Assembly: GCA_918272565.1 (NCBI GenBank)
Contig: CAKJYW010000001.1
Span: 6,353-70,352, forward strand
DNA: 64,000 bases
Direction of reading: 5' to 3'
Origin: Bacilli bacterium
GTDB taxonomy: Bacteria; Bacillota_I; Bacilli_A; ML615J-28; CAG-698
Made by a program: the position numbers and the translations under genes. The first letter of the stretch is position 1. Each line of letters opens with the position of its first letter. The notes beneath the pieces are model-generated. The model ran no database searches. It saw only the letters and a list, made by a program, of their open reading frames with translations, and was not told where the DNA came from. Shown piece by piece: positions 1,531 to 49,065 of the stretch.

Positions 1531-1571
1531 AAAAAAGTCCTTAAAAACAATAAAAAATTGCTTTTAAGGAC
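1531..1571 (-). terminator. T-box attenuator/terminator hairpin (GTCCTTAAAA / TTTTAAGGAC, 10-bp stem) followed by a U-run on the minus strand
   Basis: Perfect inverted repeat 1537-1546 / 1562-1571 lies immediately upstream of the metN RBS. The T-box core on its 5' side can alternatively pair as an antiterminator. Confidence 0.6.
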
Positions 1572-1800
1572 GAATGATTCGTGGTACCAACCTTAATTCA
1601 AAAACTAAAAAGATATTAGTTTTCCTATTTTCTAGTCGCATAGATTTGACTATTTAAACTATATCGCTTTAACGGGCGAACGCGTCATTTCTTAAGTGTA
1701 GACAGTTCGGAAATGATTGCTCCTAGACCATGTTCATAAATCTCATCTTGCATCATTCCACCAAACTGATGCTCTCTATAAAGATTTAACTTACTACTCA
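1531..1800 (-). promoter_or_regulatory. T-box leader (tRNA-sensing riboswitch) controlling metNI, probable Met specifier
   Basis: The minus-strand reverse complement of 1580-1598 reads AATTAAGGTTGGTACCACG, matching the T-box consensus AATTAGGGTGGTACCGCG, and is followed by the terminator. Stem I candidates carry AGAGAG, GGTGGAATGATG and AAGATGA (ATG at plus 1744-1746 and 1751-1756). Confidence 0.65.
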
Positions 1801-1885
1801 TCTATTCATAGCACTATTAAGTTACTTATATTATATCTTTATAATTTATCTATATTCAATATAAATAAATATGTAAATGTTTACA

Positions 1886-2665: not shown

Positions 2666-4651
2666 ATGGCAACTAATAAAGCTAATAATTACACAAGTGA
2701 TCAAATACAAGTATTAAAAGGATTAGAAGGTGTTAGAAAACGTCCGGGAATGTACATTGGTTCTACTGACTCTCGTGGTTTACACCATTTGATTTGGGAA
2801 ATCTTTGATAATTCAGTTGATGAAGTATTAAGCGATTATGCTAATCAAATTAGAATAATTATCCACAAAGGTAACTCAATTGAAGTTATGGATAATGGTC
2901 GTGGTATTCCTATTGGAATGCATAAGACTGGTGTGCCTACTCCTCAAGTTGTATTTTGTGAACTTCACTCTGGTGGTAAATTTGATGATTCATCATATAA
3001 AGTAAGTGGTGGTTTACATGGCGTTGGTGCTTCTGTTGTAAATGCCTTAAGTGAGTGGATGGAAATCACTATTTGTAGAGATGGAAAGATTTACACTCAA
3101 AGATTTGAAGATGGTGGTAAAGTCATCAAGAAACCTAAAGTTGTTAGTGATTCATCAAAAAGACGAGGAACTACAGTTCACTTTAAACCAGACCCTTCCA
3201 TCTTTTCAACAACCTTAGTTGACTATAAACTTTGTAGCCAAAGGATTAAAGAAACTGCCTTCTTAACTAGAGGATTAAAAGTTGAACTAATTGATGAAAG
3301 AACTGGTCAAAGTGAAACATTTAAATATGAAACTGGTATTATTGAATATGCTAAAGATTTAGCAGGAGATAAGAAAGCTTTATGTGACCCTATCTATTTA
3401 TCAGGTGAATTCGATGTTACACCTGAAGAGACAAATAGCGATAAAAAAGTAATTATTACAGCTGAAGCTGCCCTAGCATACACTGCTAAAACTTATTCAG
3501 AACACATCTTATCATATGTTAATAACGTTAGAACAACTGACGGTGGAACTCATGAGACAGGATTTAAGAGTGGTCTTACTAAAGCTTTTAATGAACACGC
3601 TAGGATGGCAGGTTTATTAAAAGAAAAAGATCCAAATCTAGATGGTAGTGATATTAGAACAGGATTAACTGCAGTAATTAGCGTTAGAATTCCTGAAAAG
3701 ATTTTACAATTTGAATCTCAAACAAAATCTAAACTAGGAACTGCTGAAGCTAAGAGTGCTGTTGAAAGTATCATTTCTGAAAAGATGAAATTCTTCCTAA
3801 GCGAAAAAGGTGAAATTGCTAACCTATTAATTGGTAATGCAATTAGTGCTTTTAAAGAGCGTGAGCAAATAAGGAAAGTTAGAGAAGATATTCGTGAAAT
3901 AAAAGAAAAGGTAAGTAAGCCATTTAACATGAATGGTAAACTAACTCCTGCTCAAGCAAGAAATCCAGAAATTAATGAGCTTTTCTTAGTCGAAGGTGAT
4001 AGTGCTGGTGGAAGTGCTCGTCAAGGTCGTGATAGACGCTTCCAAGCAATCTTACCTTTAAGAGGTAAAGTAATTAACGCTGAAAAGAATTCTCAACAAG
4101 AACTTCTAAAGAATGAAGAAATCTTATCGATTATTCATGCAATCGGTGCTGGTATTGGAAAAGATTTCAATATCAATAAATGCAATTACAAGAAAGTTGT
4201 AATTATGACCGATGCGGATACCGATGGAGCACACATTCAAATATTGTTACTTACTTTCTTCTTTAGATATATGAAGCCTTTAATTGATGATGGTAGAGTT
4301 TATATCGCCATGCCTCCTCTTTATAAGATTAGTTATAAAGGAAAAGTAGAATATGCTTGGAGTGATGAAGAATTAAGAGAAAAGTTAGCTGAAGGCAAAC
4401 AAACTAACGTTCAACGTTTCAAAGGTTTAGGTGAAATGAACTTCACTCAACTTTGGGAAACTACAATGTGTCCTGAAACAAGAACTTTAGTTAGAGTTAA
4501 TATTGAAGACTTTGGTGAAGCTGATAACTGTATTAATATCTTGATGAGTGATGATGTTGAACCACGTAGAGAGTGGATTGAGAACAATGTTTCTTTCGAA
4601 AATGTTGACAATTTTACATTAGAGAATGTTGAGGTACTTGGCGATGAGTAA
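2666..4651 (+). CDS. parE: DNA topoisomerase IV subunit B (ParE/GrlB), not gyrase B
   Basis: GHKL ATPase and TOPRIM motifs (EGDSAGG, PLRGK) are present. The N-terminal signature TDSRGLHHLIWEIFDNSVDEVL matches ParE (DNSVDEVL) rather than GyrB (DNSIDEAL). True start is ATG at 2666 after SD AAGGGTGA. The stop overlaps the parC start (ATGAGTAA). Confidence 0.8.
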   Translation: MATNKANNYTSDQIQVLKGLEGVRKRPGMYIGSTDSRGLHHLIWEIFDNSVDEVLSDYANQIRIIIHKGNSIEVMDNGRGIPIGMHKTGVPTPQVVFCELHSGGKFDDSSYKVSGGLHGVGASVVNALSEWMEITICRDGKIYTQRFEDGGKVIKKPKVVSDSSKRRGTTVHFKPDPSIFSTTLVDYKLCSQRIKETAFLTRGLKVELIDERTGQSETFKYETGIIEYAKDLAGDKKALCDPIYLSGEFDVTPEETNSDKKVIITAEAALAYTAKTYSEHILSYVNNVRTTDGGTHETGFKSGLTKAFNEHARMAGLLKEKDPNLDGSDIRTGLTAVISVRIPEKILQFESQTKSKLGTAEAKSAVESIISEKMKFFLSEKGEIANLLIGNAISAFKEREQIRKVREDIREIKEKVSKPFNMNGKLTPAQARNPEINELFLVEGDSAGGSARQGRDRRFQAILPLRGKVINAEKNSQQELLKNEEILSIIHAIGAGIGKDFNINKCNYKKVVIMTDADTDGAHIQILLLTFFFRYMKPLIDDGRVYIAMPPLYKISYKGKVEYAWSDEELREKLAEGKQTNVQRFKGLGEMNFTQLWETTMCPETRTLVRVNIEDFGEADNCINILMSDDVEPRREWIENNVSFENVDNFTLENVEVLGDE

Positions 4652-7106
4652 GAAGACAACAAAACTAATTGAAGAATTTGTAAATGAGAGGATTTTAAAC
4701 GACAATCTTGAAGAGATATTTGGTGATCGTTTTGGTCGTTATTCTAAATATATCATTCAAGATCGTGCGATTCCAGACGTTAGAGATGGTTTAAAACCTG
4801 TTCAAAGAAGAATTCTATTTGCTATGTATCGTCTTGGTATCTTTTATAACAAGCCTTATAAAAAGAGTGCGAGAATTGTTGGTGAAGTAATAGGTAAATA
4901 TCACCCTCATGGTGACACTTCAGTTTATGATGCTCTAGTTAGAATGAGTCAAGATTTCAAGACTCGTTTTCCTCTAATTGACATGCAAGGAAACAACGGC
5001 TCAATCGACGGCGATGGTGCCGCCGCAATGCGTTACACAGAGGCGCGTCTTAGCAAATTTAGTGATTATCTACTTAAAGACATTAACAAAAAGACTGTAG
5101 GATTTGTTCCTAATTTCGATGATGAGGAATATGAACCCGTTGTCCTTCCTAGTGCTTTCCCTAACCTTTTAGTAAATGGAGCAACAGGTATAAGTGCTGG
5201 GTACGCAACTGAGATTCCACCTCACAATATCGACGAAGTAATTAATGCCACAATCTATCGTATCAACAATCCTAATTGTAAATTAAAAGATATCATGAGA
5301 ATAATCTTAGGACCAGATTTCCCTACTGGCGGTATTGTTCAAGGAATCGATGCCTTAAAACAAGCTTATGAAACTGGTCGTGGCAAGATTGTTGTTAAGA
5401 GTAAGACAGAAATCAAAGATTTAGATAAGATTTATCAACTTCAAGTTACCGAAATTCCATATAATGTCAATAAGAGTCAACTAATTAAGAGAATGAGTGA
5501 ATCTGTTGAACAAAAGAACATCGATGGTGTACTTGATATTAGAGATGAATCTGATAAAGAAGGTTTAAGTATTGTTGTTGACATAAGAAAAGATGCGAAC
5601 CCTGAATTCATTCGTAATTTCTTCTTTAAAAACACTGAGCTTCAAATCAATTACAACTTTAATGTTGTAGCTATTTGTAACAAGCGACCTATGCAACTTG
5701 GTTTACTTCAAATGCTTGATGCCTACATTGAGCATCAAAAAGAAGTAATCACAAATAGAAGTAATTTTGAATTAGCATCAGCTAAAAAGCGACTTCATAT
5801 TGTTGAAGGATTAATAAGCATGACATCTATTTTAGATGCTGTTATCCAAACAATTAGAAATAGTGCTAATAAAAAAGATGCTAAAGAAAACTTAATTACA
5901 ATGTTTGGTTTCACTGAGATTCAAGCTGAAGCTATCGTTATGTTACAACTATATCGTTTAACTAATACTGATATTGTAGCTTTGATGGATGAAAAAGAGA
6001 ATTTAAGTGAAAGAATCAAGGAATTAGAAGAGATTCTTTCTAACGAAGAAAGTTTGCTTAACTTAATTAAAAAAGAATTACTTAATACATTAGAAGAATT
6101 ATCAACACCTAGAAAGACAGTTATTGAACATGAGATTGAAGATTTGAATGTTCAAGAAAAGGTAATGATTCCAAAGGAAGATGTTATAATCTTAATTACT
6201 AAAGATGGTTACATTAAGAGAATGTATCCAAAGAATTATTACACTGATGATGATACAAAGATCAAAGAAGATGACACAATCATTGCAACATATAACTGTA
6301 CTACACTAGATACATTATTACTATTCTCTACTGAAGGTAATTATGTATATTTACCAGTTAGTAACATCCCAGATTGTAAACATAAAGATATGGGTAGAAA
6401 CATCTCTACTTTAGTTAATATTGGTGCTGATGAACATATAATTTATGCTGTTCCAATTGATGACTTCTCTAAAGAACGTTATCTACTCTTCACAACAAAA
6501 TCAGGTTTAACAAAGCGTACTTTAATTAAAGACTTAGAGGCTACTCGTTTTGGTAAAGCACTAAAAGCTACTAAAGTTAGACCTGGAGATGCGGTTGTTA
6601 GCGTTGATATTTGCGATGGTGAAAAAGGCGATGTTGTGATGGTTACTAAAGAAGGATTCATGACTAGATATCCACTTGATGAAATCAGCTTATTTGCACC
6701 TGCTTCATTTGGTGTTAAGGCTCTTGAAATGAAGAACCGTCCAAATGATGAAGTAGTAAGTGGTTATTATGTTAATGATAAAGATGTAATTGTAGTACTT
6801 ACTGGAAGTGGTGTTATTAAGAGATTTAAACCTAGTGAAATCGTCAAAGGTCACAAGACTCATGTAGGTAGACAGTACATCCAATCAGCTAAATCTAAGA
6901 CTAATGTCATCGATGTTAAAATCGTTCATGCTCCTAACATTAAAGAAGGATATGTTGAATCATACATCGAAGGAACAGATGGAATTGCTCCAATTGATCT
7001 TGGTTTAGTTAAAGGAACTACTAAGACTAGTAGTCAAAGTATGAATGTTGGTAAGCCTAAGAAGATTATTATCGTAAGAAATAACAAGGACTTTAATACA
7101 AAATAG
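4644..7106 (+). CDS. parC: DNA topoisomerase IV subunit A (ParC/GrlA)
   Basis: FGDRFGRYSKYIIQDRAIPDVRDGLKPVQRRILFAMY has the ParC-type VQRRIL (GyrA has VHRRIL). No GyrA-box QRRGGKG occurs in the C-terminal domain. Start is ATG at 4644 (MSKKTTK) with SD GAGGT 8 nt upstream. Confidence 0.8.
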   Translation: MSKKTTKLIEEFVNERILNDNLEEIFGDRFGRYSKYIIQDRAIPDVRDGLKPVQRRILFAMYRLGIFYNKPYKKSARIVGEVIGKYHPHGDTSVYDALVRMSQDFKTRFPLIDMQGNNGSIDGDGAAAMRYTEARLSKFSDYLLKDINKKTVGFVPNFDDEEYEPVVLPSAFPNLLVNGATGISAGYATEIPPHNIDEVINATIYRINNPNCKLKDIMRIILGPDFPTGGIVQGIDALKQAYETGRGKIVVKSKTEIKDLDKIYQLQVTEIPYNVNKSQLIKRMSESVEQKNIDGVLDIRDESDKEGLSIVVDIRKDANPEFIRNFFFKNTELQINYNFNVVAICNKRPMQLGLLQMLDAYIEHQKEVITNRSNFELASAKKRLHIVEGLISMTSILDAVIQTIRNSANKKDAKENLITMFGFTEIQAEAIVMLQLYRLTNTDIVALMDEKENLSERIKELEEILSNEESLLNLIKKELLNTLEELSTPRKTVIEHEIEDLNVQEKVMIPKEDVIILITKDGYIKRMYPKNYYTDDDTKIKEDDTIIATYNCTTLDTLLLFSTEGNYVYLPVSNIPDCKHKDMGRNISTLVNIGADEHIIYAVPIDDFSKERYLLFTTKSGLTKRTLIKDLEATRFGKALKATKVRPGDAVVSVDICDGEKGDVVMVTKEGFMTRYPLDEISLFAPASFGVKALEMKNRPNDEVVSGYYVNDKDVIVVLTGSGVIKRFKPSEIVKGHKTHVGRQYIQSAKSKTNVIDVKIVHAPNIKEGYVESYIEGTDGIAPIDLGLVKGTTKTSSQSMNVGKPKKIIIVRNNKDFNTK

Positions 7107-18100: not shown

Positions 18101-18153
18101 CTCTATAAGCCTTGTATGAGAAGATTATCTTTTTAAGATGGGTAATTACTAAT
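18101..18153 (+). repeat. Repeat family copy A (ctctataagccttgtATGAGAAGATTATCTTTTTAAgatgggtaattactaat) with mini-ORF MRRLSF*
   Basis: Shares the core GAGAAGATTATCTTTTTAAGATGG-TAATTA with copies at 18486, 18601, 18716, 20143, 27456, 28672 and 48899, all on the + strand. Confidence 0.6.
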
Positions 18154-18229
18154 CTAAAGTTATCATAAACGCGTTATGAAGTGTAAATAATATATAAATT
18201 ATAAGATTCTTATATATAGATGATTTAAA

Positions 18230-18283
18230 AGAAGTGGATATCTGTGTTAATAAATATACTAAATAACCTACTTATCCACTTCT
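18230..18283. repeat. Perfect 11-bp inverted repeat (AGAAGTGGATA ... TATCCACTTCT) with 32-nt loop, 17 nt upstream of dif
   Basis: Read directly in sequence; followed by GATTTT. Could be a terminator or a protein-binding palindrome. Confidence 0.5.
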
Positions 18284-18300
18284 GATTTTATTGATATATT

Positions 18301-18328
18301 GCTTCCTATAATATATATTATGTAAAGT
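18301..18328. other. dif: Probable chromosome dimer resolution site dif (XerC/XerD target)
   Basis: gCTTCCTAtAATATATATTATGTAAAgT versus Bacillus subtilis dif ACTTCCTAGAATATATATTATGTAAACT gives 25/28 identity with the central TATATA and both arms preserved. It lies in a 1.1 kb non-coding gap between convergent gene blocks, with xerD 4.5 kb away. Confidence 0.7.
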
Positions 18329-18485
18329 AGAATATCAAAAGGCAACGGGCTTTGATATATATTGTATAATAAAAAGGTGAATAACAATGTAGCTACTTCA
18401 CCTTGTATTCTTATATTGATCTATCTCAAACAAATCCCCACCAATCATTTCTTATAGATTATCCATGTTTTATTTGCTAATCTTC

Positions 18486-18536
18486 TTGTATAAGCCTTAT
18501 ATGAGACGTTTATCTTTCTTTAGATGATTAATTATC
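18486..18536 (+). repeat. Repeat family copy B with mini-ORF MRRLSFFR* (ATG AGA CGT TTA TCT TTC TTT AGA TGA)
   Basis: ttgtataagccttatATGAGACGTTTATCTTTCTTTAGATGAttaattatc. The Arg codon differs from copy A (AGA to CGT) yet still encodes Arg. Confidence 0.55.
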
Positions 18537-18600
18537 TTATTGGATTCTCTTAATGGCTTATGATTCTTTTTATATATTTATTTCCTGAATTATATTGATA

Positions 18601-18646
18601 AACCCTTATCTGAGAAGATTATCTTTTTAAAGATGGTTAATTATCT
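18601..18646 (+). repeat. Repeat family copy C (aacccttatCTGAGAAGATTATCTTTTTAAAGATGGTTAATTATC)
   Basis: Core contains the palindrome ATCTTT-TTAA-AGAT; the start codon is degenerated to CTG. Confidence 0.55.
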
Positions 18647-18715
18647 GTTTGCTTTCTTAAAAAAGGGCTTTATAAGGCTTTTTTATTATATATTCCTTAC
18701 TTGATTACTCTTTTT

Positions 18716-18802
18716 CTTCTATAAGCTTTATTAGAGAAGATTATCTTTTTAAAGCAGGATAATTAATCATTTAACGTTTTAAAAGAGCTTTGTAGGAGGG
18801 GG
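18716..18802 (+). repeat. Repeat family copy D plus its 3' extension (…ttagagaagattatctttttaaagcaggataattaatcatttaacgttttaaaagagctttgtaggaggggg)
   Basis: The 3' extension aaaagRgcttt-taggaggg recurs at 18661-18680 and 18971-18990, showing that the true unit is about 115-130 nt and arranged in degenerate tandem array. Confidence 0.5.
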
Positions 18803-19210
18803 TTATTAATGAATTTTCATTTAATGATCCACCTAATCAGCCACAAAAAATCTATCTAAATATCTTCTATTTATAATTCTAAAACAGTTATTAAAAAAGA
18901 GCACAAGCCCAAAATTTCACTTATAATGATTTTTGATATAAAAATCGAATAATTAATCATTTGATTGATTAAAAGCGATTATAGAGGGAATTTCAGGCTT
19001 GTTTCTTAATAATAGCTTAATTACAGTTTTATTTTTCTGAAAAAAACTATTTATACTAGCTACTGATCTGTTTTCGTATTGTTTTTTTATAAAAAAGAGG
19101 CTCGAAAAGCTTTAATATATTCATAAATCAATTATGATAATGATTATTTGCTTAAAATTTATATCATTTTTGTCTGTTTTTAAGCATTTTATGGATGATA
19201 ATTAATCTGA

Positions 19211-19242
19211 AAACAAAAAAATCCTCTTATACTTAAGAGGAT
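19211..19242 (-). terminator. Rho-independent terminator of the lipoprotein gene (minus strand)
   Basis: ATCCTCTTA-tact-TAAGAGGAT hairpin overlaps the stop codon, and a T-run follows on the minus strand (plus-strand aaacaaaaaa). Confidence 0.6.
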
Positions 19243-20072
19243 TATCTATTAGATTTGGCTTGAGAACGAGTCTCAACTTCATCTTTAAATGCAAATGTTA
19301 CTTGGAAGTTTACAACACGATTTGCTTCGTTTAAAAGCTTAAATGTATAGTTCTTCTTTTGAGTTTTTTCTGTAATTAAAGTGTAATCGATTGATTTTTT
19401 TTCTTCATCGTTTTCATCTAAGAATACGTTGTATTCTTCAATTAAGATGTAGCTACAATCTTTACTTGCTCTATATTCACTAACGTCTGTTGTAAGTTCA
19501 GTTTCAAGAATTATTTCGTTATTTTCATTGAATTCTTTAACTAAAATGCTCTGAGGTGTAGCTATTTTAATGAAATTAATCTTGTATGTAAATACATAAT
19601 TAAGGTCATTTTTAACAGCTTCACTAGCAAATGTTAGAGTTTGTGTGTCTCCAACTTCGCTTGATAAATTGACATCAGCTTTATATTGAACTAGATAAGA
19701 TCCATCTTCAAGCATATAAATCTCATATAAGAACAATTTATAATTAACGTTTTGAGATTGATAATAGTTTGCTGTAATGAAGAGGCAGACACTGTTTAAG
19801 GTGATCATGTCACCTTGAAGTTTTGATGTATCTGTCTTTGTATCAAACAAAGAGTCACCTTTAACTGATACAAATGAATAATCATCTGAAGCGTAGATTC
19901 CATTAATCTCTATATCGTTAAGTTTATCAAATTTTTGACTTTCTCCTATCGTGTTACTTTTCTCATAGATTGTGAATCCGATTAACTGTTTTTCGCTATT
20001 CTTCTTTTTCCCACAACCCACTAAAGTAAAGCAAACCACAAGGATTAAAAGTAATATAAACTTTTTATTCAT
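19242..20072 (-). CDS. Hypothetical lipoprotein
   Basis: Signal peptide MNKKFILLLILVVCFTLVGC with lipobox LVGC. SD AAAGGTGA supports the start at 20072 (track start 20111 is an over-extension). No catalytic motif. Confidence 0.55.
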   Translation of the reverse strand: MNKKFILLLILVVCFTLVGCGKKKNSEKQLIGFTIYEKSNTIGESQKFDKLNDIEINGIYASDDYSFVSVKGDSLFDTKTDTSKLQGDMITLNSVCLFITANYYQSQNVNYKLFLYEIYMLEDGSYLVQYKADVNLSSEVGDTQTLTFASEAVKNDLNYVFTYKINFIKIATPQSILVKEFNENNEIILETELTTDVSEYRASKDCSYILIEEYNVFLDENDEEKKSIDYTLITEKTQKKNYTFKLLNEANRVVNFQVTFAFKDEVETRSQAKSNR

Positions 20073-20142
20073 AACATCACCTTTAAAATGGTTGTATTTA
20101 TTATACCACATTTATTAAGTAAATGGCAAGTTTTATAATCTT

Positions 20143-20200
20143 TAACCCTTATAAACCCTTATAGGAGAAGATTATCTTTTTTAGATGGGTAATTACTAAT
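20143..20200 (+). repeat. Repeat family copy G (taacccttataaacccttatagGAGAAGATTATCTTTTTTAGATGGGTAATTACTAAT)
   Basis: Near-identical to copy A over the core. It has an internal acccttata duplication and no ATG. Confidence 0.55.
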
Positions 20201-20232
20201 ATAAAACTCTCAGAAATGAGTTTTCTGAGAGT

Positions 20233-23828: not shown

Positions 23829-24959
23829 TTACATATAATAAACTAATATCTCATTCATCACAAAAAGGGCACTTCTAGCCACTTTTAGAGAAGATTTATT
23901 AATATTTAGCACACCTTTATCAATTAAATTTCTCGTAAACGGGTATTTCTCCATAAAATCAATATTAAATCTCTCTTTAAATTCATCTAAATCGATTCCA
24001 TCTATCTTTCTTAACCCCATCATGATAAATTCTTTTATCTCATCTTCTTCTTTTAACTCTTCAACTAACGAATAAATTAATTTATTATTATCAATTCCTT
24101 CATAATATAAATTGATATTATTGATGTTAGTTTTTCTTGACTTTGAAATAAACGATGAAGCACTAGCTCCTATTGCACTATAATAATTAAAATCCCAATA
24201 GATTAAATTATGGAGTGAAGCAAAACTATCTAAAGCGAAATTACTTACTTCATATTGTCTAAATCCATTACGTTCTAATAATTTAATAATCTTATAATAG
24301 ATCTTCTTTTCTTTTCCTTCACTTAATTCTTTAAATAAACCTTTTTCTTTTAGTTTATATAGAATAGTTTTCTCTTCTAGAATTAGATTATAACAAGAAA
24401 AATGAGTGACATATTTCTTTAATGTCTTAATATCTTTTTTGATGACATTAAAAGATTCATTATTAAGCCCATAAATTAAATCAACATTGATATTATTAAT
24501 ATTGTTTTCTTTTAATAACTTTAAAGCATTTATTACTTGCTTTTTGTTATGTTTACGGTTTAATAATAAAAGTTTTTTCTTATCTAGGCTTTCTACTCCT
24601 AGGCTTATTCTATTAACTTTATATTTTTTGATTAAGTTTATAAAGTCAATTGTTACATCAGCTGGATTAGCTTCGATAGTGAATTCTTTGATTTTACTAA
24701 AATTGATTTTGTTATGTAGTTCAACAAATAGTTTTTCTAAAATAGAAAGTTTTAATACTGAAGGAGTTCCTCCTCCAATATAAATTGTTTCTAGGTCTTT
24801 AAATTCATCTACCTTTAGTTTTAGTTCTTTTATTAGATAATCGACGTATTTATCTTGAAAAGAGGGGCTAACAACCATCTTATAGAAGTCACAATAAGTA
24901 CAAATCGATGAACAAAAAGGAATGTGGATGTATAAACCTAAGATTTTATTATTTATCAT
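23829..24959 (-). CDS. hemW: Radical SAM family heme chaperone HemW (coproporphyrinogen-III oxidase-like)
   Basis: CxxxCxxC cluster [12 protein letters not shown] and a GGGTPS motif. The C-terminal 25 codons overlap a sequence resembling the repeat family (see findings). Confidence 0.75.
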
Positions 24960-26884: not shown

Positions 26885-27457
26885 ATGAAAATAAATTACC
26901 CTAACCCATCAATTAAAACAACAAAAACGAATTCCATTAGAACTTATGGAATGCTTTTTGAAAATGTTTTAAATGAAACAAATGAATATTACAAAAATAA
27001 AGATATCGCCTATATCTATAAAAAGCCTACTCCGATTCAGGTTGTTAAAGTGGACTACCCAGCCAGAAACAAAGCCAAAATCACGGAAGCTTACTACCGC
27101 ACCCCTTCAACAACCGACTATAATGGCATTTATAAAGGAAAATACATTGACTACGAAGCTAAAGAAACAACCGAAACTTCTTTTTCTTTCACTCACATTT
27201 TCCCTCATCAAATTGATCATTTAATTAATGTTAAACGTCACGGAGCAATATCTTTTGTTATAATATACTTTAAAAAATATAACGAAGTAATAATCATCGA
27301 TATCGATGACTTCTATAAACTATACGATGATGGTGTTAACCATGATGGTAGGAAAAGCATTCAATTTGAGAAAGCAAAAGAAATAGGGCGCATTGTTCCT
27401 AAAGGATACACACCACTTCTAGATTATCTAAAAACAGTCGATGAAATGTATTTCTAA
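26885..27457 (+). CDS. recU: Holliday junction resolvase RecU
   Basis: GMLFENVLNETNEYY...PTPIQVVKVDY...TEAYYRTPSTTDYNGIYKGKYIDYEAKET matches RecU. SD GAGGT 8 nt upstream supports ATG 26885 (MKINYPN). Confidence 0.85.
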   Translation: MKINYPNPSIKTTKTNSIRTYGMLFENVLNETNEYYKNKDIAYIYKKPTPIQVVKVDYPARNKAKITEAYYRTPSTTDYNGIYKGKYIDYEAKETTETSFSFTHIFPHQIDHLINVKRHGAISFVIIYFKKYNEVIIIDIDDFYKLYDDGVNHDGRKSIQFEKAKEIGRIVPKGYTPLLDYLKTVDEMYF

Positions 27458-27508
27458 CCCTTATTAGAGAAAATTAATTATTTATAGACGTATAATTATA
27501 AATAAAAA
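27456..27508 (+). repeat. Repeat family copy (aacccttattaGAGAAaATTAATTATttatagacgtataattataaataaaaat), left member of an ~85 bp direct repeat
   Basis: Matches 28672-28714 nearly base for base. The core is shortened by deletion of the hairpin segment between two ATTA motifs. Confidence 0.5.
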
Positions 27509-27509
27509 T

Positions 27510-27550
27510 GCTTAAAAGCAACTTAGAGAAGCTTTTAAGCATTTTTTTAT
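27510..27550 (+). terminator. Rho-independent terminator after recU (GCTTAAAAGC-11 nt loop-GCTTTTAAGC + T-run)
   Basis: Perfect 10-bp stem and T9. Duplicated at 28716-28754. Confidence 0.7.
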
Positions 27551-27553
27551 TCT

Positions 27554-28549
27554 TTATTTTTTCATTTTCTTTATTTCTTTATTAACTTTATTTAGTGTTA
27601 ATGTTTTATAGCCATCATCTATCTTAGAAAAATATGATGAAACAAATTCAGCTTCATATTCATGGTCACCTAAATATTTTATTTTAATTACAGCACAGCC
27701 TATTATATCTCCATCCATTTTAATGATGATATCGATGTAGGCTTTTTTGATGTTTTTATCGTGCATCTCTTCGTATTTAACTAAATCTTCAGTATAAATA
27801 GGGCACCATGATAAAAGGCTGTTAGAATCTACTGAAACTTGATTAGTCTTATTAAAACTATAAAAAGAACCTCTATCAGTGCTGCATTCAAACCTAGCAC
27901 CTTCTAGATTAAAGATGAAAAATATACCAACATAACCTTCATTAATATTAAATGTTTCACCAAACGGAAAATAGACAAGGCTTTTAATCTCTTCTAAAGT
28001 TTTATCTATTTTTGTTTCTTTTGCTTCTTCTATTTTATTTAGGGTATATTCTAGTGAGATATTATCTAAATAATTATCTCCTTCTTTAAATAACTCAACT
28101 GTATGGGTTTCATATTTATATAGACTTTTTTCAATCTGATACATTTCAATTATTAAAAAGCCGATAATATTATCATCCATCCTAATAATTACATCCATGT
28201 ACGTCTTATCTATTTTATTAACATACAGTTCTTGAAAGATATAATCATCTAAAATATAAACAGGAGTCCATACAATATCTTCATTAGAATTAAATATACT
28301 TTTTTTTACTATATTATAACGATCAAATGAGCCATATTCTATTTGGCAATCAAATGTAGCTCCTTCTAAAGTAAAGTGTATAGGGTGTATGCTACTCATC
28401 CCATTATTAAAATAAGGATAAGAATACGAAACGATGTTGTATGGATCAACTATTTCTTCTTCATCATTTTTAATGCTTTCATTGTTACCTTTGCAACTAA
28501 AAAGGATAAAGCAAGAAGCTATTATTAATAATATAATTATTTTTTTCAT
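27554..28549 (-). CDS. Hypothetical lipoprotein with an internal tandem duplication of a ~150-aa domain
   Basis: Lipobox LFSC. The halves DCQIEYGSFDRYNIV...MDVIIRMDDNIIGFLIIEMYQ and ECSTDRGSFYSFNKT...YIDIIIKMDGDIIGCAVIKIKY align. Flanked by ~85 bp direct repeats. Confidence 0.55.
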   Translation of the reverse strand: MKKIIILLIIASCFILFSCKGNNESIKNDEEEIVDPYNIVSYSYPYFNNGMSSIHPIHFTLEGATFDCQIEYGSFDRYNIVKKSIFNSNEDIVWTPVYILDDYIFQELYVNKIDKTYMDVIIRMDDNIIGFLIIEMYQIEKSLYKYETHTVELFKEGDNYLDNISLEYTLNKIEEAKETKIDKTLEEIKSLVYFPFGETFNINEGYVGIFFIFNLEGARFECSTDRGSFYSFNKTNQVSVDSNSLLSWCPIYTEDLVKYEEMHDKNIKKAYIDIIIKMDGDIIGCAVIKIKYLGDHEYEAEFVSSYFSKIDDGYKTLTLNKVNKEIKKMKK

Positions 28550-28671
28550 AATTTCACCACTTTATTAATCAATATTTTCTTAATTAGATTTTATCATTTA
28601 TCGTTTTATATTGTCAAATCTAAAGAATTATAAATAATATTTATTAAAAAAACACATTCAAAACTCGTTTT

Positions 28672-28754
28672 TGAGAAGATTAATTATAAAAAGGCGTATA
28701 ATTATAAATAAAAATGCTTAAAAGCGACTTGGTGAAGCTTTTAAGCGTTTTTTT
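28672..28754 (+). repeat. Right member of the ~85 bp direct repeat (repeat-family remnant TGAGAAGATTAATTAT + terminator hairpin GCTTAAAAGC/GCTTTTAAGC)
   Basis: Compare 27466-27550. The hairpin right arm overlaps the stop codon of the 28741..29256 gene and is T-flanked on both strands, so it likely terminates the minus-strand gene. Confidence 0.6.
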
Positions 28755-47716: not shown

Positions 47717-47967
47717 TATAAAAAAAGTCCCTAAACAAAAATGAAATTTTTGTTTTAAGGACGAATAATCATTTCGCGGTGCCACCTTAATTCAAAACAC
47801 AAACAAATTTATTTGTTTTGTTTTGCTCTTTATTTTATCTTAACGCGATAGCTACGCCCTAAAGGGATCTCCAAAGTGTCTTTCAGCAAATCTAATAAAA
47901 TTCTTTCACCAAACGAATTCTCTCTAAATATTTAATTTACTTACTCTTCTTTTTCACCGATTTATAT
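47717..47967 (-). promoter_or_regulatory. T-box leader controlling hisS-aspS (candidate His specifier CAC)
   Basis: The minus-strand reverse complement of 47775-47792 reads AATTAAGGTGGCACCGCG (T-box consensus). Terminator 47727-47762 (GTCCCTAAACAAAAAT/ATTTTTGTTTTAAGGAC) has a U-run. Stem I is AGAGAGAATTCGTTTGGTGAAAG...GAAAGACACTTTGG. Confidence 0.7.
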
Positions 47968-48847: not shown

Positions 48848-48898
48848 ATAATCATTTCCTTTTTGTCTTTTTCTTCAATATAGTCTATATTCTATCAC

Positions 48899-48940
48899 AA
48901 AAACCCATTTATGAGAAGTTTATTTTAAAAAGGTGATACT
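48899..48940 (+). repeat. Divergent repeat family copy I (aaaacccatttATGAGAAGTTTATTTTAAaaaggtgatac) with mini-ORF MRSLF*
   Basis: Plus-strand orientation, in the cvfB upstream / CDF downstream intergenic region. Confidence 0.45.
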
Positions 48941-49065
48941 TTACCAACTTAATCTTCTTATAAATAGATTTATTTCTTATTATTTGATGTCTTTATAATA
49001 AAAATCAAAAAGAGTAGCCAAATGTTATATATGAAATATATTCCATTTAGTTACTCTTATAACTA

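Follow-up and report, generated by a model that had tools for sequence, protein, structure and literature searches.

The question raised by this locus is what a short repeat is doing, always on the same strand, on both sides of the dif site of a Bacilli bacterium. The repeat lies in a stretch of 64,000 nucleotides (nt) of contig CAKJYW010000001.1 (assembly GCA_918272565.1, positions 6,353 to 70,352 of the forward strand), here called the window, and a first, sequence-only reading had described it there as at least nine copies of a 45-60-nt core containing a mini-open reading frame, possibly an element resembling a MITE (miniature inverted-repeat transposable element), a leader-peptide module or the scars of insertions at dif. 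The analysis reported here leads us, tentatively and at less than even confidence, to favour another answer, namely that the family is a hairpin-forming module of about 80 nt, most likely a structured RNA that acts in cis, in a terminator-like or insulating manner, at the boundaries of transcription units.

Eight copies, A to H, were recovered by nhmmer with a profile hidden Markov model built from the copies and searched against the window (E = 3e-13 to 1e-8), all of them on the + strand, and the next match lies at E = 0.004 (Table 1). A 35-mer of the core has no chance matches in 100 shuffles, and no matches are expected by chance in the exact and near-exact core searches. This is a genuine repeat family, linked to the dif region and distinct from CRISPR arrays, REPs and insertion sequences, as had been proposed. 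The eight positions agree broadly with those first listed, that of copy G (given as 28672) being slightly off. The ninth, at 23861, is not supported as a copy: the profile scores it at E = 1 on the + strand, and a covariance model gives it 24 bits (E = 0.025) for the - strand but 17 bits for the + strand. It falls inside a coding sequence, the 3' end of a hemN-like gene (23868-23948, - strand), where the weak match is in sense orientation; a similar weak match is found in the orthologous gene of a related species (L048, 1264-1295), and the two reflect either chance or element-like sequence embedded in coding DNA. Copies B, C and D stand head-to-tail at spacings of 109 and 122 nt, which bears out the degenerate tandem unit described around dif, with a divergence too great for Tandem Repeats Finder (TRF) to call. 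Comparison of orthologous and paralogous copies shows that the full unit is about 80 nt long and that the original core is only its 5' two-thirds. The 3' extension AAAAGRGCTTTRTAGG, reported at 18661, 18781 and 18971, is present at all three positions and corresponds to the 3' arm, the pairing partner of the 5' block; at 18971 it belongs to a related long hairpin, element X, and not to a half-copy of the unit. The palindrome ATCTTT-TTAA-AGAT, which had been taken for a feature of the core, is not conserved in F, G and H.

The 5' arm of the unit (..AAsCCTTATnTGAGAAG) pairs with its 3' arm (CTTCTCA..AAGGsTT..), and the inverted arms ..TGAGAAG / CTTCTCA.. surround an invariant segment, GAGAAGATTAT..GGGTAATT. 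Within the arms GATTATYT pairs with RGRGTAATT, forming an inner stem (GAUUAUYU:RGRGUAAUU) that carries invariant G-U pairs, and a near-invariant purine-rich segment, GAGAAGAUUAU, lies inside the unit. In the outer stem the sequence drifts and the pairing is retained: the arms GCCGTTTCTGAGAA, AAGCTTTGTATGAGAA and TTGCTTGCTAGAGAA differ strongly, yet each pairs with its own partner, and in an organism from a bioreactor (L068) the arms are perfect with a very different sequence (TTGCTTGCTAGAGAA ... TTCTCTAGCAAGCAA), one of its two copies, L068b, having a 17-bp stem followed by T8. Within the window, copy B folds through an outer stem TATAAGCC/GGCTTATG plus GAGA/TCTC, and copy H through an outer stem of 12 bp, ATTTATGAGAAG/CTTCTTATAAAT, after which comes a U-rich tail.

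A covariance model was built from six orthologues and then used to align 12 copies from eight species. In this alignment, standard pairs occupy 89.2% of the cells, against 43-51% with the partners slid by one to three columns, both sides have changed in 8 of 21 pairs (23 cells), and the covariation score reaches 0.293 where the slid controls give 0.08-0.13, a value that none of 500 shuffles attains; these counts are biased upward by the fitting of the alignment to the model, and their margin over the slid controls is large. The RNA-structure test that had been suggested for an alignment of the copies is the one that gave the clearest result. Compensatory changes affect 7 of the 13 outer-helix pairs and one pair of the inner helix (C-G / U-A / U-G). 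Moreover, the pairing is asymmetric between strands, G-U outnumbering A-C by 45:2 overall and by 10:2 in the covarying outer helix, and the + orientation has the lower folding energy in 15 of 20 folded copies, with one tie. Because of this G-U excess and of the lower folding energy in the + orientation, the folded form is strand-specific, that is, RNA or single-stranded DNA and not duplex DNA. The outer pairs of element X are likewise predicted by alifold in the + orientation only. Rfam 15 returned only two T-boxes at gathering score in the window and no meaningful sub-threshold match over any copy or orthologue, and collections of phages, plasmids and viral contigs gave chance-level matches only.

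The pairing also bears on the idea that the family is a regulatory module built around a leader peptide, MRRLSF. The mini-open reading frames are readable as described (MRRLSF in A, MRRLSFFR in B and MRSLF in H), three window copies having ATG-AGA-AGA/CGT-TTA-TCT-TTT and then a stop codon. Of the 12 aligned copies, however, no more than two have the ATG (A and the L053 copy that precedes the lipoprotein gene), with B and H as further cases outside the alignment, and in most copies CTG, TTG, TAG, AGG or CTA stands in its place; the ATG is preceded by no Shine-Dalgarno sequence, and it lies in the covarying outer helix, where its partner base changes in step (for example from U-A to C-G or A-U). 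Most copies, in addition, have no co-oriented downstream gene, and the exchange of AGA for CGT, from which constraint on the peptide had been argued, rests on copy B, one of the fast-decaying tandem copies. Constraint at the peptide level thus finds no footing in the alignment, and we give the leader peptide next to no credence.

Strain comparisons show that the dispersed copies are maintained. The same locus is found at 98% identity in a metagenome-assembled genome (GCA_963426235.1) and at 96% in metagenome scaffolds (L070), the latter strain being the one used for the divergence classes. Copies A, E, F and G differ from it at 6 of 358 nt (1.7%), coding DNA at 171 of 4131 nt (4.1%), other intergenic DNA at 81 of 951 nt (8.5%) and the tandem copies B, C and D at 34 of 242 nt (14%). 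The dispersed copies are less divergent than other intergenic DNA (p = 1.3e-6) and than coding DNA (p = 0.02), and are therefore under purifying selection, while the tandem copies are best read as local duplicates that are now decaying. Presence/absence polymorphism of copies was not found among three strains, including those at 98% and 96% identity. One oddity concerns copy F in the 98% strain (L058 4405-4515, contig 49 of GCA_963426235.1, about 27500-27550 of the window): the contig ends within the terminator of the copy, and the left arm and core are swapped for an unrelated sequence with an inverted repeat of its own (CCCTGTAAATC...GATTTACAGGG), absent from the window, for which an insertion into the hairpin and a break of the assembly at the repeat are both possible explanations.

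Conservation of position extends well beyond strains. Syntenic loci from six further species (L048, L053, L055, L050, L056 and L006) were anchored on the 289-amino-acid lipoprotein next to copy E, since YjbQ, at 80-89% identity across unrelated Clostridia, is a poor anchor for relatives. The identity of the lipoprotein to that of the window ranges in these species from 67% down to 35%, and all eight species examined have a copy directly upstream of the orthologous gene, irrespective of whether yjbQ, a hydrolase or an asparaginase gene lies on the far side; the core is still recognisable beside the orthologue of only 35% identity. The copy occurs there in either orientation, being inverted in L050 and L056 relative to the others, so that the claim that every copy lies on the + strand holds for the window (8 of 8) and fails in related genomes. 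Further copies and hairpin X are found between the lipoprotein gene and dif in several species, element X being kept downstream of the lipoprotein gene in five, while F and G are kept at the recU end and upstream of a second lipoprotein gene, of 331 amino acids, in L057 and L070, copy F being about 98% identical in L057, where the flanking protein is 82% identical. No empty sites were found among the loci compared. A location-unbiased pattern scan of metagenomes returned one true member of the family, L063/L068, at 1.9 kb from dif; a scan of genome contigs with AASYYNTNTNNGAGAARATTAWYTWT gave 43 single matches resembling chance, among which the covariance model later showed L006 to be a true relative. 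According to the sample labels, the relatives come from ruminant gut assemblies and one from a bioreactor assembly. The contigs of five related species (L048, L050, L054, L055 and L056) end 200-650 nt downstream of the lipoprotein gene, in the element-bearing region beside dif, which suggests assembly breaks induced by the repeats or by strain variation. In the window, 5 of the 15 intergenic regions of at least 90 nt carry elements, and 4 of these 5 are the four flanks of the two orphan lipoprotein genes, a pattern with a chance of 11/3003 = 0.004 by our own calculation, in a test made post hoc.

These observations bear directly on whether the family is a selfish repeat, MITE-like or SPRITE-like, that spread in the past and is now immobile, with any function incidental. 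The copies are short, AT-rich and intergenic, with inverted arms, and are often terminator-like, as is the pneumococcal SPRITE (PMC3049150); metagenome contigs break at or beside them, and B to D evolve at least as fast as neutral DNA. With MITEs they share a similar size, inverted ends, an intergenic location and a lack of coding capacity (PMC10969869, PMC2229807). They differ from MITEs in having no target-site duplication (no direct repeat beyond chance A/T runs borders L068a, L068b, H or the upstream copies of L056 and L050, all of them copies with well-defined arms), no evidence of mobility and no parent insertion sequence in the window, and in that their arms covary where a MITE has a fixed terminal inverted-repeat consensus: the inner TGAGAA/TTCTCA is the only part of the arms common to the copies, and the outer parts differ and change with compensation. 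The absence of empty sites among the three strains, the upstream copy in every species examined, the lack of any transposase gene among the 49 open reading frames of at least 90 amino acids in the window, the lack of matches in phage or plasmid collections and the conservation of A, E, F and G above coding DNA all argue in the same direction. The MITE-like interpretation is thus not borne out, and a selfish origin of the broader kind appears distinctly unlikely.

SPRITE is nevertheless the closest described thing in behaviour. Its roughly 30 near-identical copies do not occur outside S. pneumoniae and S. mitis, and it is regarded as parasitic; its long-stemmed copies are enriched at the 3' ends of genes and between convergent genes, and co-option as a terminator has been suggested (PMC3049150). 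Both families are short, AT-rich, intergenic stem-loop repeats near gene 3' ends, with a stem longer than that of ordinary terminators and often a U-rich tract, and the modular, tandem copies found here recall BOX elements. In contrast to SPRITE, the copies described here are few and diverged (60-85% identical), show compensatory changes and an invariant internal segment, and have been retained at orthologous sites in species with a flanking protein of only 35-67% identity. The likeness is one of description and behaviour, and no sequence relationship is expected. A looser likeness links the family to REP/BIME and other stem-loop families, which are intergenic palindromes at operon ends, single or clustered, and which are transcribed and can stabilise the upstream mRNA or attenuate read-through (PMC2267715, PMC3184786). 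REPs, however, are GC-rich sequences of 20-40 nt with a conserved GTAG, linked to RAYT transposases (PMC2267715, PMC3184786), whereas the element described here is about 80 nt long, has 22-34% GC and a large structured loop and lacks GTAG, and no RAYT/Y1 transposase is encoded in the window. The family is a member of none of these. Its low copy number and divergence, its conserved positions across species, its covariation and the purifying selection on it make it resemble a structured RNA motif more than a parasitic repeat.

The positions of the copies relative to genes point to what such a motif may do. Every copy lies at the edge of a transcription unit. A, F, L068a, L068b and the upstream copies of L050 and L056 begin 5-15 nt past a stop codon, in sense orientation, the core of F overlapping the recU stop codon. 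E, G and H each occupy the space that separates the terminator of a - strand gene from the promoter of the following one, and are antisense to both genes. Terminators of bidirectional appearance close C, F and G; in E and in the upstream copy of L048 the 3' arm serves at the same time as an arm of the yjbQ terminator, and yjbQ is without any other terminator in L050 and L056, the species with the flipped element. Of the five intergenic regions that carry elements, two separate convergent genes. No conserved promoter was found upstream of the copies across orthologues, and for this reason a role in cis is favoured over a stand-alone gene. In every species the lipoprotein genes are each served by a strong promoter of their own that lies outside the element, a position that led us to discard the idea of an invertible promoter. 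From these features we infer a module that is transcribed and acts in cis on the strand carrying the G-U pairs, as a terminator-like, insulating or 3'-end-protecting structure at RNA 3' ends. On the right of dif, the + copies would keep + strand transcription out of the - strand genes; the transcription blocked would include read-through across dif, the recU transcript and divergent firing at the lipoprotein promoters. As a plain terminator needs no invariant segment, GAGAAGAUUAU implies a sequence-specific partner, conceivably a lineage-specific factor that would recognise it.

Several points weigh against this module. The same invariant segment of 11 nt is superfluous in a plain terminator, and the partner postulated to explain it is unsupported. 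All copies have the stem, and a U-rich tail follows the hairpin in only about 7 of 15 (B, C, F, G, H, the upstream copy of L048 and L068b, as read from the flanks). For E, G, H and the upstream copies in four species, both neighbouring genes are on the opposite strand, and the model therefore needs + strand transcription, for which the promoter-like sites are weak and non-conserved; the element of L006 lies in reverse orientation within the 3' untranslated region of the hydrolase gene. Compensatory-looking changes in DNA palindromes can come from template switching, with no need for selection on RNA.

The independence of copy orientation from the neighbouring genes, together with the conserved positions, would suit a family of sibling small RNA genes acting in trans, each with its own promoter and terminator as in LhrC1-5 of Listeria, the tandem array having arisen by gene amplification. 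LhrC copies are partly tandem and partly dispersed. Strong intrinsic terminators end G, F and C, promoter-like sites of C, E and H score in the top 3-6% of the background, with TTGTCT-17-TATATT just upstream of H, and TTGATG-17-GATAAT precedes the second element of L006. There is a precedent, again in a low-GC Firmicute, in the five homologous lhrC copies: these multi-copy units measure about 100 nt, some of them carry a terminator, each has a defined, regulated promoter, and their loops bind Shine-Dalgarno regions (PMC5880928). Here, in contrast, no conserved promoter, free seed or target was found: the promoter is not conserved across orthologues, 9 of 12 orphan copies scoring at background, the most conserved bases are largely paired, and no significant duplex forms with the adjacent lipoprotein mRNA (z from -1.9 to +1.0). 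Copies that start 5-15 nt past a stop codon leave no room for a promoter, and the tandem copies, which amplification would have produced, are decaying. We regard trans-acting RNA genes as unlikely, if quite conceivable.

The neighbourhood of dif raises the further possibility that the element acts on DNA. The window is a replication terminus, since the GC skew flips and a dif site is present. Cumulative GC skew climbs to about 18-20 kb and declines beyond, genes lie on the + strand as far as 18098 and, beyond 19242, nearly all on the - strand, and CTTCCTATAATATATATTATGTAAAGT, which we take to agree with the B. subtilis-type dif consensus at nearly every position, occurs once, at the skew maximum and at the orientation switch, as first proposed. 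It is kept in L053 and L068 and, in a degenerate form, in L006. A single-stranded hairpin or a protein site that serves, near dif, the convergence of forks, dimer resolution by Xer/FtsK, topoisomerase IV action or the unloading of SMC would fit the fact that five of the eight window copies lie within 1.9 kb of it, and would more easily explain the variable orientation to genes. The sole true member found by the metagenome scan is again 1.9 kb from dif, with a second, convergent copy 1.9 kb away on the opposite side: the L068 copies (2583-2664, +, and 6521-6602, -) are 1917 and 1914 nt from dif (4581-4607), the intervening genes being unrelated, and the near-equality of these distances, though striking, is probably a coincidence. 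The copies of L006 lie 160 nt and 1.8 kb from its dif-like site, in the same layout as A and E in the window.

The association with dif thus recurs in two further lineages, and it does not extend to F, G and H, which lie 9-30 kb away. Polarity to dif is inconsistent, A and the L068 copies pointing toward it, B to E away, and L050 and L056 being flipped; the decaying copies are the dif-proximal tandem ones; and proximity to dif may simply mirror the conserved synteny of the hydrolase-yjbQ-lipoprotein block. The copies have no similarity to the arms of dif and, with one orientation on both sides of it in the window, where 18 kb to its left are covered, they do not resemble a Ter/RTP fork trap, in which polar sites of about 30 bp form two opposed groups around the terminus and are served by a cognate terminator protein; no RTP-like protein is found among the 49 open reading frames. 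Nor do they behave like FtsK-orienting polar sequences (KOPS) or SpoIIIE recognition sequences (SRS), an idea prompted by the GAGAAG of the arms, which we take to resemble B. subtilis GAGAAGGG: the elements carry GAGAAG against the leading-strand skew. The heptamer GAAGAAG, presumably that reported as the Lactococcus KOPS, is skewed 46:2 between leading and lagging strand on either side of dif, a ratio confounded with coding-strand bias. On balance a DNA-level terminus element is rather unlikely. A more specific version, in which copies found 0.2-2 kb from dif in three independent lineages would be terminus boundary sites, a hairpin pair or array bracketing dif and the orphan lipoprotein cassettes and acting on DNA and not RNA to control, for example, how forks converge, how Xer/FtsK or topoisomerase IV act, or how the flanked cassettes recombine, we consider improbable.

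The clustering of copies around dif could also suggest scars of repeated Xer-mediated insertion by integrative mobile elements exploiting Xer (IMEX), or sites bound by XerD only. Sites derived from dif, whether IMEX scars or XerD-only sites, are recognised by similarity to its 11-nt XerC or XerD arms. Searches of the window with the full site and with the XerD arm match only dif and three unrelated places, the arm-like 12-mers lying at 18317 (dif itself), 26795, 31319 and 43368 and none on an element; no dif-like arm is found in or beside any copy, copies occur far from dif as well, and the surrounding genes are housekeeping. Insertion scars are accordingly very improbable. Integron attC sites, whose boxes R''/R' read RYYYAAC ... 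GTTRRRY, are not matched by the arms ..TGAGAAG / CTTCTCA.., which lack AAC/GTT boxes, and the only tyrosine recombinase in the window is XerD-like and in conserved housekeeping synteny.

Table 1. Coordinates of the repeat copies, element X and dif in the window. Blank cells, no value given; strand of dif, not assigned.
Feature	Position	Strand	nhmmer match	Covariance model	Differences from the 96% strain	Remarks
Copy A	18103-18184	+	18103-18155, E = 8.5e-13	70.6 bits	1	0 differences from the 98% strain; starts 5 nt past the stop of a 247-amino-acid + strand gene, ends 118 nt before dif; sense, toward dif
dif, CTTCCTATAATATATATTATGTAAAGT	18302-18328	.				27 nt, single match in the window; not a member of the repeat family
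Copy B	18488-18568	+	18489-18545, E = 1.4e-10		10 of 81	First tandem unit
Copy C	18597-18678	+	18597-18650	59.5 bits	16 of 82	Second tandem unit; folds; 3' arm runs on into a terminator-like hairpin and T-run ending near 18690
Copy D	18720-18798	+	18719-18772	43.4 bits	8 of 79	Third tandem unit; fold -20.3 kcal/mol, z = -2.98
Element X	18905-19000	+				Related long hairpin (AAGCC-AAAATTTC ... GAATTTC-GGCTT) with ATAATTAATCATTT motif; direct-repeat family D8
Copy E	20150-20231	+	20150-20202	87.4 bits	1	Between yjbQ and the 289-amino-acid lipoprotein gene; positional orthologues in 7 other species; 10-nt 5' duplication, AACCCTTATA twice, at 20144-20163 (TRF)
Copy F	27452-27548	+	27452-27505, E = 5.8e-9		3 of 97	Inverted repeat I20; core followed by a perfect 16-bp bidirectional terminator common to the convergent 331-amino-acid lipoprotein gene
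Copy G	28658-28754	+	28658-28711, E = 5.3e-9		1 of 97	Found in L057 and L070; 86% identity to F over 93 nt; upstream of the 331-amino-acid lipoprotein gene; core followed by a bidirectional terminator common to a DUF402 gene
Copy H	48898-48979	+	48898-48950, E = 1.1e-8			Fold z = -3.63; between a cation-efflux gene and cvfB

The surroundings of dif show further structure. AGAATATCAAAAGGCAACGGGCTTTGATAT (18329-18360) lies directly beside the XerD-arm side of dif, with a near-identical AGAATATTAAAAGGCGATGGGCTTCGATAT in L053, and forms a small hairpin, and dif itself is within a larger imperfect palindrome at 18291-18338 (TTGATAT...ATATCAA); these features perhaps represent an extended or accessory context of the site. 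A hairpin at 18230-18283 (arms AGAAGTGGATA / TTATCCACTTCT, a large loop of about 30 nt, then GATTTTATT), located between copy A and dif, is unchanged in the 98% strain and presumably terminates the 247-amino-acid gene. In the 1.1-kb gap, a hydrophobic open reading frame of 29 amino acids (18871-18960, - strand) has no ribosome-binding site, and a type I toxin or small protein encoded by it was rejected on that ground; an open reading frame of 16 amino acids comes after copy D.

The window as a whole has a GC content of 30%, and its 49 open reading frames are all housekeeping or of unknown function, including parE-parC, a two-component/ABC cluster, xerD-like, deoB, lepA, recU, mutS2, aspS/hisS and cvfB, with no phage gene among them. 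The 331-amino-acid orphan lipoprotein (27554-28549, - strand), which begins with MKKIIILLIIASCFILFSC, is unrelated to the 289-amino-acid lipoprotein except in the signal peptide and has an internal duplication into two ...LEGA.F.C....GSF... halves. It evolves fast, at 95% identity in the 98% strain and 82% in L057, the flanking non-coding DNA being near-identical, and its counterpart in L070 (1148-1975) is an open reading frame of 275 amino acids. T-box leaders are found at 1563-1818 (- strand), upstream of a MetN-like ABC ATPase gene (546-1517), and at 47754-47966 (- strand), upstream of hisS-aspS. A gap of 1.1 kb at 1518-2656 contains an 84-nt direct repeat (1933-1992, 2017-2076), which may represent a small unannotated gene.

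If the reading as a cis-acting structured module is true, the family would be an undescribed structured non-coding element from an uncultured Bacillota lineage of the ruminant gut and of bioreactors, and, given its covariation and a strain-level conservation above that of neighbouring genes, a candidate for Rfam-style curation. It would also be a rare case of an interspersed repeat demonstrably kept by selection at orthologous sites. Its copies are concentrated around dif and the two orphan lipoprotein genes, and its invariant internal segment would predict a sequence-specific partner.

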